Source of the DNA: a virus
Virus record (IMG/VR): IMGVR_UViG_3300022752_000021
Length of the DNA: 64,000 bases
Direction: 5' to 3' (one strand)
Shown one piece after another: positions 3,441-22,586 of this stretch. Each line of letters starts with the position of its first letter. The stretch's first letter is position 1. Both the position numbers and the translations under genes were made by a program. The notes under the pieces were generated by a model. That model saw only the letters and a list, made by a program, of their open reading frames with translations. It did not search any database and had not been told where the DNA came from.

Positions 3441-4139
3441 TTACTTGTAGATTGCCTTCCACGAATATGGGAATAGTGGTTCAATGAGTTTAGCAATGGC
3501 TGCTGCATATTCCCTAACTTCCCATTGTGCATGATCATCAGATCGTAGCGAACAAACTCTTGCATATCCCGCAAGAGAACCAGTCCACCACCATTCGGTG
3601 TACATGGATTGAGGAAGAGCAAATCTAGCCTGTTCTGGTGCTACACCAGCGGCTAGGAGTTCCTTGTAGGTGTCAAGAGCATCATCACAGAGATTCTTGT
3701 ACGATTCGTCCTGCATCGTGGTACCAGTCATAAATTCTGAACTACCTTGCTTGGCTCCATTGGTTGGCGCACCACGCCAGAACGGAGTGTAGTACTCAGG
3801 TTCTTCTTTGACATAGCGACGAGAAACCTCATTCTCGACAAATCCAACCTTATGCTTGAACAATTGTGTTCGAATGGAAATTGGTGCTTTGATATGCAAG
3901 CAAATTTGTGGGTGTGCGAATGGAGTCCAATGTTTATTGTTTGCAAGGTACTTGATCAGATTTCCATCTTCCTTTTCGCGGAATTTAGAAACTTCTTTTG
4001 CAAAAGACACACGGGCAGCATTGACCACCATGAGATCGTTTCCCATGTGATCGATGTATCTGACGAAACCCTTGTCGAGTACATTTATCTTTTGCGGATC
4101 ACTAGGCTTGTTCTGCTGTATTCCCTGAAAGATCAACAT
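3441..4139 (-). CDS. thyX: Flavin-dependent thymidylate synthase
   Basis: VVNAARVSF, HWTPFAH, RTQLFKH..ENEVSRRYV, PEQARFALP, HAQWEVR motifs. Confidence 0.93.
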   Translation of the reverse strand: MLIFQGIQQNKPSDPQKINVLDKGFVRYIDHMGNDLMVVNAARVSFAKEVSKFREKEDGNLIKYLANNKHWTPFAHPQICLHIKAPISIRTQLFKHKVGFVENEVSRRYVKEEPEYYTPFWRGAPTNGAKQGSSEFMTGTTMQDESYKNLCDDALDTYKELLAAGVAPEQARFALPQSMYTEWWWTGSLAGYARVCSLRSDDHAQWEVREYAAAIAKLIEPLFPYSWKAIYK

Positions 4140-17967: not shown

Positions 17968-20504
17968 TATCCGAACAATCCTTCCAATGTATGCACTACT
18001 TCTTCCTTCCATCCAAGAACGCCAAGAATGTTTCTCATCGGCTCAAGGAATGTCTTCTCAAACTGCAAATCGTAATCCACAAACCCATCAAGATTGAACT
18101 CATCTGGAATCTTTGATGTGAATGCAATCACCTTTTCGCACAATGGATTCGGTGTCTTGAGATAAAGAAACTTTATCTTGTCGCCTTCACGAATCTCCTG
18201 ATACTTCCCACCCAACTTGTTCTTTTTGATGTTGTAGTTGAACAACAAGGAACCCTTTGTTGCGATTGGTGTTCCTTTCTTGTAGATCATAGTTGGATCA
18301 CCATACTCCTTCAGCCCATTGCAACTTCTTGGGAATGCAATCTTCTCTGGCGGAAGGCTCTTGAATACATTCCTAAAGGTCGAAACGAACTGCTGCACAT
18401 GAGTCTCGTCCTTGTTCATGACGATTGAGATGGCTTCCTTGAGGGCATTACGGACAACCTCTGGTGTGGAGGAACGCGCAGTCTCAATGCCCATGATCTT
18501 GAGTTCTGGAACCTTTAGATAAACATTCTCTTCACCCATGCGAACATTCAACATGTATCGCTTCTTCGCAGTCCAAATGCCCGATGACGCAATCGACTCG
18601 CGCTTCATACGCATCTTATTGTCATACGCATTCATATATTCAGCAAGACGATCATAAGACTTATTGATCACCTTCTGAATTGCTTCGTTGGATGCCTTGT
18701 CAATGAACTGCGTGATCTTCTGCTCATCCTTCTCATTTGGCATCACCTTGGAAACAAGAGGACCAAGGTTCAGATAGACGGAGTCTGTGTCGATTGCAAT
18801 CACATAATCGACACCTTCTGTGCTGTTTGCTTTGTTGAGATACTGATTCAGATCTTTCTCAACCCATTGCACCGACAACTGACCAGACAAGGTTATAGCC
18901 TCAGCAATTGCCTCATCGTAGTAACGAAACCATTCGTTTCCAACGGCACCGAAGGCGGAATTGAGTTGAATCTTGCGGACGAGTTGGAAGTTGTGAAACT
19001 TCGAAATGGCGAGTCGTAGATTCTCTCTATCTTCTTCAGTCGCGTCCACAGGTAGTTGTTTGAGAGCAGCCTTGGCTTCAAGCATGAGCCTCTTGTAGTT
19101 CTTACGCTCCTCATACATCCGTTCCATGAGTTCAGGAAGAAATCCCCGAACATCCCTTCGATAAGTCGTACCATTGGCAGCAAGGCACACTCCTCTGCGG
19201 ACGGCTTTCTCTCGTTCGGATAATGCAAGAGGTGAAGCCTTGATGAACGACTGAGGCGTAACCACTCGTCTGATCCCGTCTTCTGTCTTAGTTTCCGGCG
19301 ACAGATTGTATTGCATGATGAGGTGGGGATATAGTGAGTCGAGGTCAAAGGATACGACCCACTTATGATGTCCCGCTTGCGGATCCTTGACATACGCACC
19401 TTCAAATGAGGCATCTTTCTTTCCTTTCTTCTTTGGGGGAATGACTATGTTCTTACTATGCAAATGATGATAGATGATCTGCTCCCATGTTCTTACTTGA
19501 GAGAAGACATCGTTGAGATTCACCTTTGCAGAGTAAGCCAATGAAACTGCAAGTTCAAGAAGCCTGAGTTTTGCCTCAAGTTTCTGAACAAGAATGGTAT
19601 CCTGAATGTTGTATTGAACGAACTTGGTGAAATCGTTCTTGTAGAAATCAGAAAAGTTGTCGTACTCCACATACGCAACCTTTGTCTCTCCAAGTTCGAC
19701 AGAAGTGATGTGACCCAACTTGTAGGATTCTCGCGTCACATAAGTGAACTTCCTATAGAGGTCAAAGTAGTCGAGCGTGTTGATACCCACGATCTCATAG
19801 GCAATGCTCTCCTTGCCCATCATCTCCACCTTGCGTTCCTTGAGTTTGCCCCAAGGAGAAAACTTCTTGGCAAACTTCTCACCAAACAAACGAGTCATTC
19901 TATTGACGAGATATGGAATGTCGAAGAACTGAACATTCCATCCCGTGATGATGTCGATTCCAAGAGTCTGCCATGTGAGCATGAAGTCGCCAAGCATCTG
20001 CTCTTCGTTGTCATACACATTCACATGGAAATCATTTGGCATCTTTGATACATCAATATTGCCCAATGTGTATGTGTATTTCTTCTCACCAACGATTAGC
20101 GTGATGACATTGATGCGCTCGTTTGCAGTCTCAATGTTTGGAAAGCCTTCTTCCGATTCCGTTTCAATGTCGATATAGGCAATCCGCATCAACTTCATGT
20201 CATAGTTGATCTCATACTTGTATTCATCACCGATGAACTGATAGAGATAGTCCGTGTTCCCGTAGATGGGATATGCATGGACATCCCTGTACTTCTCCAC
20301 AAACTCCCGTGCTGAGTCGATGTCATCGAACACTATAGGCTCAACGCTTTTGCCATCAAGCGTGTGCCATGCAGATCCCTTCTTTCCTAATACAAACAAA
20401 GTTGGTTGAAAAGACTGCTCCTCGGCAAAGGCAACTCCATTCTCATAGCCGCGATGCAGAATGCGATTGCCGCGAATGGCAACATTCGTGTAGAACTTCT
20501 TCAT
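17967..20504 (-). CDS. gp43: Family B DNA polymerase (T4 gp43-like)
   Basis: Exonuclease DIETE, TGWNV.FFDIPY; polymerase FDLDSLYP, KIQLNSAFG, DTDS, KKRY. Confidence 0.98.
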   Translation of the reverse strand: MKKFYTNVAIRGNRILHRGYENGVAFAEEQSFQPTLFVLGKKGSAWHTLDGKSVEPIVFDDIDSAREFVEKYRDVHAYPIYGNTDYLYQFIGDEYKYEINYDMKLMRIAYIDIETESEEGFPNIETANERINVITLIVGEKKYTYTLGNIDVSKMPNDFHVNVYDNEEQMLGDFMLTWQTLGIDIITGWNVQFFDIPYLVNRMTRLFGEKFAKKFSPWGKLKERKVEMMGKESIAYEIVGINTLDYFDLYRKFTYVTRESYKLGHITSVELGETKVAYVEYDNFSDFYKNDFTKFVQYNIQDTILVQKLEAKLRLLELAVSLAYSAKVNLNDVFSQVRTWEQIIYHHLHSKNIVIPPKKKGKKDASFEGAYVKDPQAGHHKWVVSFDLDSLYPHLIMQYNLSPETKTEDGIRRVVTPQSFIKASPLALSEREKAVRRGVCLAANGTTYRRDVRGFLPELMERMYEERKNYKRLMLEAKAALKQLPVDATEEDRENLRLAISKFHNFQLVRKIQLNSAFGAVGNEWFRYYDEAIAEAITLSGQLSVQWVEKDLNQYLNKANSTEGVDYVIAIDTDSVYLNLGPLVSKVMPNEKDEQKITQFIDKASNEAIQKVINKSYDRLAEYMNAYDNKMRMKRESIASSGIWTAKKRYMLNVRMGEENVYLKVPELKIMGIETARSSTPEVVRNALKEAISIVMNKDETHVQQFVSTFRNVFKSLPPEKIAFPRSCNGLKEYGDPTMIYKKGTPIATKGSLLFNYNIKKNKLGGKYQEIREGDKIKFLYLKTPNPLCEKVIAFTSKIPDEFNLDGFVDYDLQFEKTFLEPMRNILGVLGWKEEVVHTLEGLFG

Positions 20505-20511
20505 AGAGGTA

Positions 20512-20539
20512 AGTATATCTCATTGCATCACAGATGCAA
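20512..20539 (-). promoter_or_regulatory. Sigma70-type promoter, probably giving a leaderless gp43 mRNA
   Basis: TTGCAT-N16-TATACT-N7-ATG. Confidence 0.65.
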
Positions 20540-21389
20540 GAGTTGATGGGATTTCTTCTTTGATTCTATTCTCTGCCACCTGAATGTATTCGGGATTCAG
20601 TTCAGTTCCCACAAAGTTTCTATTGTTCTCAAGAGCAACAACTGCTGTGGTTCCCGATCCCGTGAATGGATCAAGCACTGTGCCACCTTCAGGACATCCT
20701 GCAAGAATGCAGGGAAGAATAAGATTCTTTGGATAAACCGCGAAGTGCGCTCCCTTATATCCCTTGGTATTCACAGTCCACACAGAACGCTTGTTCTTCA
20801 TGGGATTTTCTTCATCGACAGCACCACCCAACCCATGATGCTTCAACTTTGGATCGGTTGTGCCACCTCGCATGTTGGAACGGTCGCGAGGTCCCCAGTT
20901 CTGTGCTGGCTCCTTGATTGCCTCATGGTCATAGTAGTAATGAGCCTTCTTGGAGAGAAGGAAGATGTACTCATGACTCTTTGTACAACGATCCGTGACA
21001 GATTCAGGCATAGGGTTTGGCTTTGACCAAATGATGTCCTGACGCAGCCACCAACCATCTGCTTGGAGAGCGAAGGCTACACGCCAGGGGATGCCGATGA
21101 GATCCTTGTGCTTCAGACCCTTCTGTTCCCTGCGATTACCAGGAATGACTGTGGGCATGTCTCGCTGTCCTCCGATTGTTTGTGGTGGAGGAGCAACATT
21201 CTTCTGTGCCATGTATGAATCACCAAGATTCAACCATAGAGTGCCATCAGGACGCAGACAGCGGCGAACTTCACGAAAGACATCAACGAGTGCTTGGACA
21301 TATTCGTTGACTTCCTGTTCGGATCCGATCTCAGCAGGTTCAAAATATTGTTGTAGTTCATTTGGGATGTCTTCTTTGTTGTATATCAT
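20520..21389 (-). CDS. N4C/N6A DNA methyltransferase (beta class), C-terminal fragment
   Basis: VFREVRRCLRPDGTLWLNLGDSY, IIWSKPNPMPES, HEYIFL, HFAVYP, SAM-binding VLDPFTGSGTT. Lacks SPPY. ATG at 21389 overlaps the HNH stop (ATGA). Confidence 0.9.
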   Translation of the reverse strand: MIYNKEDIPNELQQYFEPAEIGSEQEVNEYVQALVDVFREVRRCLRPDGTLWLNLGDSYMAQKNVAPPPQTIGGQRDMPTVIPGNRREQKGLKHKDLIGIPWRVAFALQADGWWLRQDIIWSKPNPMPESVTDRCTKSHEYIFLLSKKAHYYYDHEAIKEPAQNWGPRDRSNMRGGTTDPKLKHHGLGGAVDEENPMKNKRSVWTVNTKGYKGAHFAVYPKNLILPCILAGCPEGGTVLDPFTGSGTTAVVALENNRNFVGTELNPEYIQVAENRIKEEIPSTLASVMQ

Positions 21390-21946
21390 TTTAGGTATTC
21401 TTGATCCACATTTTTCTTGGAGTGTATCCAATGATGGCAGATTGAACACACCAATAACAGATTATCAATATCAGCACGCAACTCAACAGACTCACTAAAC
21501 GATTTTATATGATGTATGTGAAATGGAACAGATTTATCTTCGACATGGTTCAAACCACACCTCCTACAGATAGCAGCATCTCGTTTCCAAACAGCCTTCA
21601 CTGCGTCTTTCCATTCCCGAGACTCATAAAAACTCTGTCGTTCTGGCGTTGACCCATCTTTCCAGTTTGGAGAAAGTTCTCCGCGCTTGTTCCACATAGG
21701 ATTGTCTTCCCCATATGCCCCCCAGTGTTTCACCTTCCTTGCTTCAGAAACATTTCTACTTTGAATCCCATGTTTGCGTATCCAATGTCTTACGGCTGGC
21801 TCACTAACAGAAAAGTCTGCGGCTATATCCGCCATACTTCTTTTTTTCACCAAGTATTCAGTCTCTAACCAACCCTTGTCCCACAATAGAGAAGGTTCTC
21901 TCCAATGTGTACCTTTTTCAAATCTTCCCAATTGATCTCGTTCCAT
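21386..21946 (-). mobile_element. Free-standing HNH homing endonuclease inserted in the methyltransferase gene
   Basis: HTH-like N-terminal segment and CRRC...HIHHIK.F......DIDNLLLVCSICHHWIH HNH core; SD GGAGG before ATG 21946. Confidence 0.88.
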
Positions 21947-21952
21947 AGAATA

Positions 21953-21973
21953 CCTCCATACTATGTATATGGA
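21953..21973 (-). promoter_or_regulatory. Late-type promoter within an RBS-sequestering hairpin for the HNH gene
   Basis: TCCATAT-ACATA-GTATGGA stem overlaps GGAGG; TATACATA lies inside it. Confidence 0.65.
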
Positions 21974-21996
21974 AAAATATTCCAAAGTACGGACAA

Positions 21997-22206
21997 TCAG
22001 CAGATAGGTTTTATCCCAAGGCGGTTGAGTTCAGATAATATCATCGTTACCTGTTCTTCGGTTAGATTTGGTTTCATTCGAACCCCCGTTTCAAAATATG
22101 ATCTTAAGCCGAAGTAAGGCGGCGATGTGACGCAAGTATGAACAGAATCTGCATCAATTTGCTTGAGTGCTTCACGACAATCGCCTTGTATGATCTTGTA
22201 GTTCAT
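21997..22206 (-). CDS. N4C/N6A DNA methyltransferase, N-terminal fragment
   Basis: IIQGDCREALKQ..DSVHTCVTSPPYFGLR (catalytic SPPY), followed by a 30-aa non-MTase tail. Confidence 0.88.
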   Translation of the reverse strand: MNYKIIQGDCREALKQIDADSVHTCVTSPPYFGLRSYFETGVRMKPNLTEEQVTMILSELNRLGIKPIC

Positions 22207-22208
22207 AT

Positions 22209-22586
22209 TCAGTAGCCTTTGCCACGAACGAAATAGTTTTCCTCAAAAGAAGCGAAACCGAAACATTCCCGCGCATAGTCGAGAATGATATTTTTGTCGA
22301 ACTTGTTACAGGAATAAACATCTAGCGTGATGAAGTGGGTGGGTTCGATTGAGTGGATTTGAATGCCACTTTCAATCAGAGGAACCCACCCACTTACACC
22401 AGCCTTTGCTGGATAGAGTTCCCTGCCAAGGTGAGTTGGTCCATGAATGACGATTGGTTGGCTCATTCGGGTCATCCCGATCTTGTCAACCACTCGCTCC
22501 AAAAATCTGTATGTAAGTTCCATGTCATCTGCTGCACCAGTCTTGCAGTTGTACATGTCTAGGTAATATGAATATCCAAACGGCAT
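22209..22586 (-). CDS. speD: Pyruvoyl-dependent S-adenosylmethionine decarboxylase-family proenzyme
   Basis: LDMYNC, GVSG..LIESGIQIHS (E-S autocleavage site), LDVYSC..FD, terminal VRG. Confidence 0.8.
   Translation of the reverse strand: MPFGYSYYLDMYNCKTGAADDMELTYRFLERVVDKIGMTRMSQPIVIHGPTHLGRELYPAKAGVSGWVPLIESGIQIHSIEPTHFITLDVYSCNKFDKNIILDYARECFGFASFEENYFVRGKGY

Follow-up and report, generated by a model that had tools for sequence, protein, structure and literature searches.

Within the 64,000-nucleotide (nt) IMG/VR virus record IMGVR_UViG_3300022752_000021 (the window, to which all coordinates below refer), an SPPY-type N6/N4 DNA methyltransferase gene is interrupted after motif IV, leaving a 69-amino acid (aa) open reading frame (ORF), a 186-aa HNH endonuclease gene and a 289-aa ORF in succession on the minus strand. 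Comparisons with related loci, together with structure modeling, indicate that the interrupting element is probably a homing endonuclease cassette that brings its own assembly peptides, such that the methyltransferase would work as two polypeptides. In the mechanism we propose, a free-standing HNH homing endonuclease gene would occupy the surface loop after motif IV of a beta-class methyltransferase of a T4-like phage, and the mobile unit of ~776 nt would comprise the HNH gene and, encoded at its ends, a 32-aa C-terminal tail for the upstream half of the enzyme (the N-half) as well as a 14-aa N-terminal leader and FEPA loop for the downstream half (the C-half). Without splicing, excision or bypass, the tightly packed ORFs would yield three proteins, of which the 69-aa fragment would contribute the beta-4 strand at the center as well as the catalytic loop, docking into the 289-aa fragment's sheet with the tail and leader at the interface to aid assembly or activity. 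The cassette could then home into uninterrupted alleles without destroying the methyltransferase. The comparisons presented below demonstrate the boundaries of the cassette, its presence/absence polymorphism, its large conserved family, and the lack of intron, intein or bypass features. Presumably, the two halves would also assemble and methylate DNA in a manner that requires the peptides, and the HNH protein would cut the empty allele.

A discrete cassette within the methyltransferase gene

The locus consists of the following parts.

21997..22206, minus strand: N-half gene, 69 aa, an ORF with SPPY at residues 28-31
22000..22095, minus strand: tail coding region, 32 codons (FETGVRMKPN...GIKPIC)
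21935..21994, minus strand: RNA hairpin in the 50-nt spacer, in which the Shine-Dalgarno sequence (GGAGG) and AUG of the HNH gene are paired
21386..21946, minus strand: HNH endonuclease gene, 186 aa (PF01844, E 1.9e-8; phrog_8446, E 3.4e-22)
21348..21389, minus strand: leader coding region, 14 codons, MIYNKEDIPNELQQ, with a start codon that overlaps the HNH stop codon (ATGA)
20520..21389, minus strand: C-half gene, 289 aa (PF01555, E 2.8e-49, residues 20-273)
21333..22108, minus strand: mobile cassette, ~776 nt, containing the last GLRSY codons, tail, spacer, HNH gene, leader and FEPA codons
22090..22099, minus strand: left copy of the direct repeat ATATTTTGAA, codons Y37-F38-E39 of the N-half
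21339..21348, minus strand: right copy of the direct repeat ATATTTTGAA, codons Y15-F16-E17 of the C-half

The N-half and C-half lie in different reading frames, and each ORF has its own start and stop codons. Residues 1-37 of the N-half are native and include the N-terminal helix, the beta-4 strand, motif IV (SPPY) and GLRSY, with Y37 being the last residue to match uninterrupted relatives, and residues 38-69 constitute the cassette-borne tail. A spacer of 50 nt separates the N-half stop codon from the HNH ATG in the window, and the ATG of the C-half shares an ATGA with the HNH TGA. From its leader, the C-half continues through helix alpha-D, strand beta-5 and the target-recognition region to motif I (DPFTGSGTT). 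An SPPY motif near the N terminus in the N-half, DPFTGSGTT in the C-half and the match to PF01555 identify a beta-class N6-adenine/N4-cytosine methyltransferase, relatives of which have solved structures (CcrM, M.MboIIA, M.RsrI, M.PvuII and N4C enzymes). The HNH protein has a helix-turn-helix region in its N-terminal part and an HNH/zinc motif in its C-terminal part, and the catalytic H and N as well as the metal-binding Cys columns are invariant in the HNH family alignment. A preliminary description of the window had placed SPPY in a 69-aa ORF and DPFTGSGTT in a 289-aa ORF of a different frame, with an HNH gene between them and the leader start adjoining the HNH stop, all of which is borne out by the coordinates above.

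The limits of the cassette are evident from its close relatives. In the sister contigs L001-L004 (IMG/VR), which belong to the same T4-like lineage, the methyltransferase gene is uninterrupted (…GLRDYGGGEGEIGSEQ…), and positions 22108..21333 of the window correspond to just 28 nt in the empty allele of L001, with flanks of 90-93% nucleotide identity. The same insert is present in L010, where the block 22110..21331 matches the window at 57-60 positions per 60-nt segment (59-60 in all but one), as opposed to only 41-55 of 60 in the flanks on either side, which puts the cassette at 98-100% identity and its flanks at 68-92%. Synonymous divergence from L010 is 0.045 for the HNH gene, 0.24 for the N-half and 0.48 for the C-half. 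The edges of the block conserved in L010 coincide with the segment absent from the empty allele, and the block encloses the tail, spacer, HNH gene, leader and FEPA codons. Close relatives are thus polymorphic for the presence or absence of the element at one site, and the element is less diverged than its flanks; the alignments demonstrate a sharply bounded cassette that has moved recently, by lateral transfer.

A further allele is provided by L168, which is syntenic with the window (dUTPase, Cpn10 and S-adenosylmethionine (AdoMet) decarboxylase upstream; DNA polymerase downstream). It is 91-97% identical to the window in the methyltransferase core, 57% in HNH, 42% in the tail and 54% in the leader. 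Judging by these identities, L168 carries a different version of the cassette at the same site, and a single phage lineage includes an empty site along with two cassette versions. More broadly, tail plus leader distances track those of HNH (Spearman 0.38, partial 0.37) and not those of the methyltransferase core (0.12, partial 0.08), in pairwise statistics that, like those for selection given below, use non-independent pairs and are descriptive only.

Two other observations were made among these sequences. The version-B HNH of L168 (2745-3503) is 252 aa in length, with a duplicated N-terminal helix-turn-helix module (WL…Y…K…S…IA…GV…W…H.I). The window also contains an imperfect inverted repeat at 22333-22395, located in the AdoMet decarboxylase-like gene at 22209-22586 (minus strand), with 23-nt arms that are 83% complementary and a 17-nt loop. 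A reverse self-match occurs at this repeat in every relative compared (L001, L008, L031, L168 and L010), and it adjoins a segment identical to L010 at 60 of 60 positions (22406-22347), with neighboring segments at 41-55 of 60.

Conservation of the tail and leader in a metagenomic family

It is now evident that the cassette belongs to a sizable family. A metagenome scan using the HNH alignment yielded 80 loci with HNH homologues of 51-68% identity, and 56 of the 63 loci assessable on both sides exhibit the order N-half plus tail, HNH, and leader plus C-half. The preliminary description had proposed a search for its two peptides around endonucleases in other split genes, and it is the same two peptides that are found at these 56 loci. 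A protein search with the N-half returned 68 proteins, ~35 of which are short (64-79 aa) and share the tail architecture, down to 46% identity; the contigs encoding three of the short homologues all have the N-half, HNH, C-half order, two of them having high guanine-plus-cytosine (GC) content and unrelated gene context. Further members occur on IMG/VR and Logan contigs, and the GC content of members ranges from 24 to 63%. Among the 34 distinct downstream ORFs that are closed by a stop codon within the locus, 33 are 260-513 aa long and keep all catalytic and S-adenosylmethionine (SAM) motifs, the other being cut short at 95 aa, and an alignment of the C-halves of 27 split-family members contains 49 invariant columns. 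The ORFs are tightly packed throughout the family, with a gap of mostly -4 to +18 nt between the N-half stop and HNH ATG and a C-half start located 1-38 nt inside the HNH 3' end. No close HNH homologue was detected among the isolated phages of INPHARED, where identity reaches 25-38% for the top matches, the majority of which are partial, and the best full-length N-half matches (Microcystis phage Mae-JY04, P-HM1) are intact genes. A homologue search with the first 40 residues of the C-half returned 3 proteins only, the query being too short, and a literature search for split N6/N4 methyltransferases with HNH genes found nothing on this family.

Both peptides exhibit a recognizable consensus. 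On the tail side it reads SPPY(F/W)GLRSY-LPDGVKLKxDL…EL…LGIxP followed by a stop codon, and the tail pattern in 60 unique members is Y-L/F-P-D-G-V-K/R-L-K/R-x-D-L...E-L-x-x-L-G-I-x-P. On the leader side it reads (M/V)NIYRKSDIPEHLQKYFEPAEIGLE, that is (M/V)-N-I-Y-R-K-S-D-I-P-E-H-L-Q-K-Y-F-E-P-A-E-I-G, in which some columns (IP, F, E-G) look invariant as a consequence of the regular expressions used to collect members. Synonymous sites are saturated across all pairs (proportion of synonymous differences, pS, 0.76-0.88), and the corresponding nonsynonymous proportion (pN) is 0.30 for the leader, 0.44 for the tail and 0.29 for the adjoining native helix, which gives a pN/pS of 0.34 for the leader and 0.36 for the native helix. 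Closer pairs give ratios of nonsynonymous to synonymous divergence (dN/dS) of 0.33 (leader), 0.44 (tail) and 0.19 (native region), and comparison with L010 gives 0.07 for both the N-half and the C-half. The direction of the pairwise figures, descriptive though they are, is clear, and this pattern of substitution demonstrates that both peptides are translated and selected at the protein level.

Contiguous enzymes present a different picture at this position. Among 151 contiguous homologues, mostly intact bacterial genes obtained from a contig scan with the N-half alignment and keyed on the motif IV pattern, the loop between Y and IG has five residues in 90 and six in 61, and the FEPAE loop occurs in none. 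Six residues are likewise found in the closest uninterrupted relatives, L001-L004 (YGGGEGEIG). The preliminary description had considered the extensions on both halves to be novel unless intact homologues contained both peptides as a native loop; neither hhalign nor the 151 contiguous genes revealed such a loop, and the extensions are indeed both absent from contiguous homologues and kept across a deeply diverged family. The loop after motif IV is a permissive site, as shown by other homologues that carry a 45-60-aa Cys-rich insert (CxH…CxxC, zinc-ribbon-like) in the same place (L022, L023, L070, L085, L098, L120, L124, L129, L154 and L233).

Several sources for the peptides were also considered. 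Matches by tblastn and PHROG profile extend on through the tail, as they would if it had arisen by duplication of the native stretch following motif IV and then diverged, but this origin was rejected, as hhalign comparison of 37 tails with 113 native segments gave a probability of <1%. The tail and leader as two halves of the native Cys-rich insert were rejected as well, with the tail having no similarity to it by hhalign and the leader aligning only in its native EIGLE part. The leader as a diverged copy of SPPYFGLRSY is a candidate weighed by eye only, the sequences being too short to compare.

Loci with other arrangements probably reveal the origin of the family. The HNH gene is free-standing just upstream of an intact methyltransferase gene in L217, L233, L086 and L087, it is inserted a few codons earlier and without tails in L204 and L085, and in L084 (2324-3064) and L252 (3-713) it is fused in frame to the methyltransferase N-core (…SPPYW…), replacing the N-half plus tail.

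Some individual loci have further peculiarities. In L083 (3030-4568), the C-half of a split relative is 513 aa from its ATG or 528 aa from an upstream GTG, and it contains a second HNH-like ORF (3469-3972) in another frame with the host frame open, which corresponds to the ShiLan "hidden HNH" layout described below atop the split. In L198 (289-570), a triosephosphate isomerase-like ORF bears a typical tail (…GVKLRGDINPEELASVLKELERLGV…) fused at its N terminus, downstream of a phosphoglycerate kinase-like end, and HNH and a normal leader plus C-half follow; this is either a chimeric assembly or the product of illegitimate recombination at shared GVKL codons. In the otherwise uninterrupted L045, L047-L050 and L052 (~3640-3900 each), a second tblastn gap of ~190-240 nt near C-half residues 224-238, before motif I, suggests another insertion hot spot in the methyltransferase gene.

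Predicted assembly and alternative explanations

Complex prediction for the N-half and C-half, using the family alignments, gave a score of 0.87, compared with 0.13 for the best of 3 controls, although for the core this score may reflect the solved structures of intact enzymes of this fold, and it shows likeness, not binding. Among 80 solved complexes, 58 attain the mark for such scores, as do 2 of 110 mismatched pairs, although these counts are only rough here due to the use of our own alignments. Contacts agree between runs to at least 92%, and the partner predicted local distance difference test (pLDDT) value is at least 82. In the predicted complex, N-half residues 23-27 are placed between C-half residues 50-54 and 237-240, which is the normal position of beta-4 between beta-5 and beta-1. 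The confident part of the predicted interface includes residues 38-45, 48, 52, 56, 59-60, 63, 65 and 67-69 on the tail side, of which 48, 52, 56, 59-60 and 63 form a helical stripe, and residues 1-9, 12 and 15-20 on the leader side. When folded alone, the tail is predicted to consist of a short strand, a helix at 50-63 (block-mean pLDDT 88-94) and another short strand, and the leader is poorly defined.

The locus also encodes a likely control element. The hairpin at 21935..21994 has a minimum free energy of -20.3 kcal/mol (z -2.8 relative to shuffles), its sequence is almost unchanged in L010 and, by analogy with I-TevI and mobE, it presumably limits translation of the HNH gene. An ATACATA box is located in its loop.

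Several points weigh against a methyltransferase assembled by cassette-borne peptides. The tail is the least constrained part, with a pN/pS of 0.58, and the non-independence of the pairs and the collection effect on leader columns have been noted above. In the window, no obvious Shine-Dalgarno sequence precedes the C-half start, and if translation from it is reliant on the HNH ORF, which itself lies behind a hairpin, the yield of the C-half would be hard to account for. Finally, in the split NrdA of Aeromonas phage Aeh1, the tails of the two fragments are dispensable for fragment-fragment binding and act instead on higher-order assembly (Crona et al. 2011, PMC3045599). "Zipping" may be the wrong picture for the peptides described here, and the suggestion in the preliminary description that they "re-zip" the halves is best treated as conjecture, since the Aeh1 tails are not needed for heterodimer formation.

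The alternative that survives best, which we nonetheless consider unlikely, is a functional split enzyme in which the tail and leader serve the cassette itself, whether through translational coupling, the stoichiometry of the three proteins, binding or restraint of HNH, or immunity of the target site. Coupling is plausible, given that almost every member has its three ORFs abutting or overlapping, and immunity could arise from the replacement of the native GGGEG loop codons by the cassette, as a target site there would be destroyed. Yet both of these functions would require nucleotides, not 45 residues conserved over 24-63% GC with saturated synonymous sites. The covariation of the peptides with HNH instead of the methyltransferase also agrees with a benefit to the cassette, as does the dispensability of the Aeh1 tails for fragment-fragment binding, whereas the position of both peptides in a confident predicted interface with the other half and the tail helix with its block-mean pLDDT of 88-94 favor a role in the enzyme.

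It is very unlikely that the methyltransferase is simply dead, as would be the case if a dispensable gene had been inactivated and its fragments persisted due to a recent event. Orphan methyltransferases of phages are often dispensable, and uninterrupted alleles do exist in close relatives; however, the 33 diverged members with a full-length C-half ORF of 260-513 aa retain catalytic and SAM motifs, the N-half and C-half both have a dN/dS of 0.07, and the split family is deep, as evidenced by HNH identities of 51-68% and saturated synonymous sites.

Rejoining of the gene at the level of nucleic acid or the ribosome is highly improbable, whether a cryptic group I intron, DNA excision mediated by ATATTTTGAA, joining of RNA or ribosome bypassing over a long range is invoked. 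One point in its favor is the 10-bp repeat. As set out correctly in the preliminary description, the two ATATTTTGAA copies are 751 nt apart, and a join between them would restore the frame and yield a protein of 311 aa (39 + 272) with five residues between Y and IG, a permissible loop length. The GLRxY-x5-IG spacing given there for intact homologues was partly right, in that 90 of the 151 contiguous genes have five residues, but L001-L004 have six and none of the 151 has FEPAE. Exact 10-mers are not rare in this 2-kb stretch (the repeat families D4 and D10 are exact 10-mers as well), only the placement of ATATTTTGAA (D9) being notable. The pair is found only in the window and L010, whereas in the remaining 58 of the 60 unique members the match is limited to 4-9 nt. 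Its existence is explained by the coding of both junctions, each of which specifies a conserved Tyr and then a hydrophobic residue, the tail of this lineage happening to read YFE as the leader side does. We reject it as a mechanism: by these comparisons it is lineage-specific and incidental, not the frame-restoring part that it had been taken for, and with the repeat missing from 58 of 60 members and no FEPAE footprint among contiguous genes, the alternatives raised along with it (repeat-mediated excision, RNA joining and long-range bypass) lose their footing as well.

The other components of rejoining fare no better. Group I introns have a conserved catalytic RNA core and thus non-coding space, with U at the 5' splice site and G at the intron 3' end. 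An Rfam scan of 20400-22400 at E values up to 10 gave four chance-level matches and no intron family, and the window sequence contains no frame-compatible U…G splice junction. The stable spacer hairpin counts in favor of rejoining; conservation at the amino acid level across 24-63% GC counts against a catalytic RNA core, and the overlap of ORFs in most members leaves no non-coding space for one, in agreement with the earlier judgment that there was no room for it. Bypass of the T4 gene 60 type depends upon matched take-off and landing codons, a stop codon after take-off and an untranslated gap of ~50 nt, whereas the gap here is 751 nt and holds an entire conserved gene. The abutting or overlapping ORFs exclude intron, intein and bypass alike.

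A split intein formed by the tail and leader, with ligation of the halves by protein trans-splicing, is scarcely conceivable. An N-intein starts with C, S or A, a C-intein ends in HN followed by C, S or T, and the HINT fold requires ~130 aa or more. The tail and leader together amount to 46 aa, the tail begins with L, F or M, the leader has neither an HN end nor a C/S/T nucleophile after it, and a Pfam scan detected no intein family, just as the preliminary description had seen no intein motifs. What favors it is the layout of half gene, free-standing endonuclease and half gene, which is that of the "fractured genes" (Dassa et al. 2009, PMC2677866).

Overall, the core of the preliminary description, a mobile element that avoids splicing and supplies a peptide to each half, is supported by the bounded cassette, the family conservation and the predicted interface; what has to be given up is the role of the repeat, the "re-zip" and, as discussed next, the novelty of the idea. 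Tentatively, the argument might be taken one step further: the tail, HNH and leader may constitute a portable "cut and re-assemble" module, the matched docking peptides of which would travel with it and let it home into diverged methyltransferase alleles, keeping them active from the first generation.

Relation to known split genes

The closest parallel is the nrdA-a/mobE/nrdA-b arrangement of Aeromonas phage Aeh1, in which a free-standing HNH gene likewise divides the coding sequence of an enzyme at the active site (PMC3045599; Friedrich et al. 2007 cited there). The similarities include a downstream half that overlaps the endonuclease gene, a unique tail on each half that is absent from contiguous homologues, a lack of RNA or protein splicing, and an RNA hairpin over the ribosome-binding site of the endonuclease gene. 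The mobE-derived tails on NrdA-a as well as NrdA-b are indispensable for activity, and it was proposed that such rescue tails might be widespread though difficult to find (Crona et al. 2011, PMC3045599). Hence, the peptide idea of the preliminary description is not new, having already been demonstrated for Aeh1 NrdA in the same study. There are nevertheless clear distinctions. The host gene here encodes a DNA methyltransferase instead of NrdA, and by residue count the tail in the window is net neutral and the leader slightly acidic, with no clear opposite-charge pattern, unlike Aeh1. Furthermore, the Aeh1 arrangement comes from one genome and was put down to a transposition that happened once, whereas the tails described here are located in a bounded cassette that moves between alleles and has dozens of diverged members. 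As the cassette is bounded, exists in dozens of diverged copies, occupies one site of nearly identical methyltransferases in two or more versions, and is absent from sister alleles, the rescue peptides would be part of the mobile element and not the lucky by-product of one insertion. Relative to Aeh1, the new aspects are a different enzyme, a large family to date known from metagenomes alone, and direct comparative evidence, from the alignments, that the peptides belong to the mobile unit.

The mobA cassette of T4 reportedly splits the topoisomerase genes 39 and 60, as Bonocora et al. are said to have described in 2011. As in that case, the endonuclease here travels as a cassette together with sequence that would neutralize the damage of its insertion, leaving the flanking gene as two parts that bear tail-like extensions. 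The mobA cassette includes a 50-nt ribosomal bypass element, whereas no bypass features are present here and the neutralizing parts would be the two peptides.

Two further systems are relevant. The ShiLan domain or "hidden HNH" of actinophage DNA methylases similarly places a homing HNH within a methylase gene in the absence of an intron or intein (Gosselin et al. 2023, PMC9957025; Arsenault et al. 2025, PMC11855218). The ShiLan HNH is actively homing and the interrupted methylase is presumed to be functional (PMC9957025, PMC11855218). In ShiLan, the host frame is open through the insert and the HNH lies in another frame, resulting in one polypeptide with an extra loop, whereas here the frame is broken and there are two polypeptides with dedicated ends. 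The fractured genes share the three-gene layout in phage-derived metagenomic DNA and an endonuclease with its own control elements (Dassa et al. 2009, PMC2677866); they carry recognizable split-intein halves that ligate the protein, in contrast to the 32-aa and 14-aa peptides found here, which have no intein features.

With respect to the biology of these elements, the proposed mechanism would explain how a homing endonuclease can colonize a catalytic loop with neither an intron nor an intein, and the family opens the idea of Crona et al. to comparative tests in addition to those at the bench. The small natural peptide pair could also be tried as a protein-complementation device. If the reading as a portable module is true, the pair would be a natural, transferable fragment-complementation tag, and the several versions at one site would provide a ready system for studying how mobile elements evolve an antidote to gene fragmentation. 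For annotation, this means that the 64-79-aa "methyltransferase fragments" located beside HNH genes in phage metagenomes should not be termed pseudogenes.

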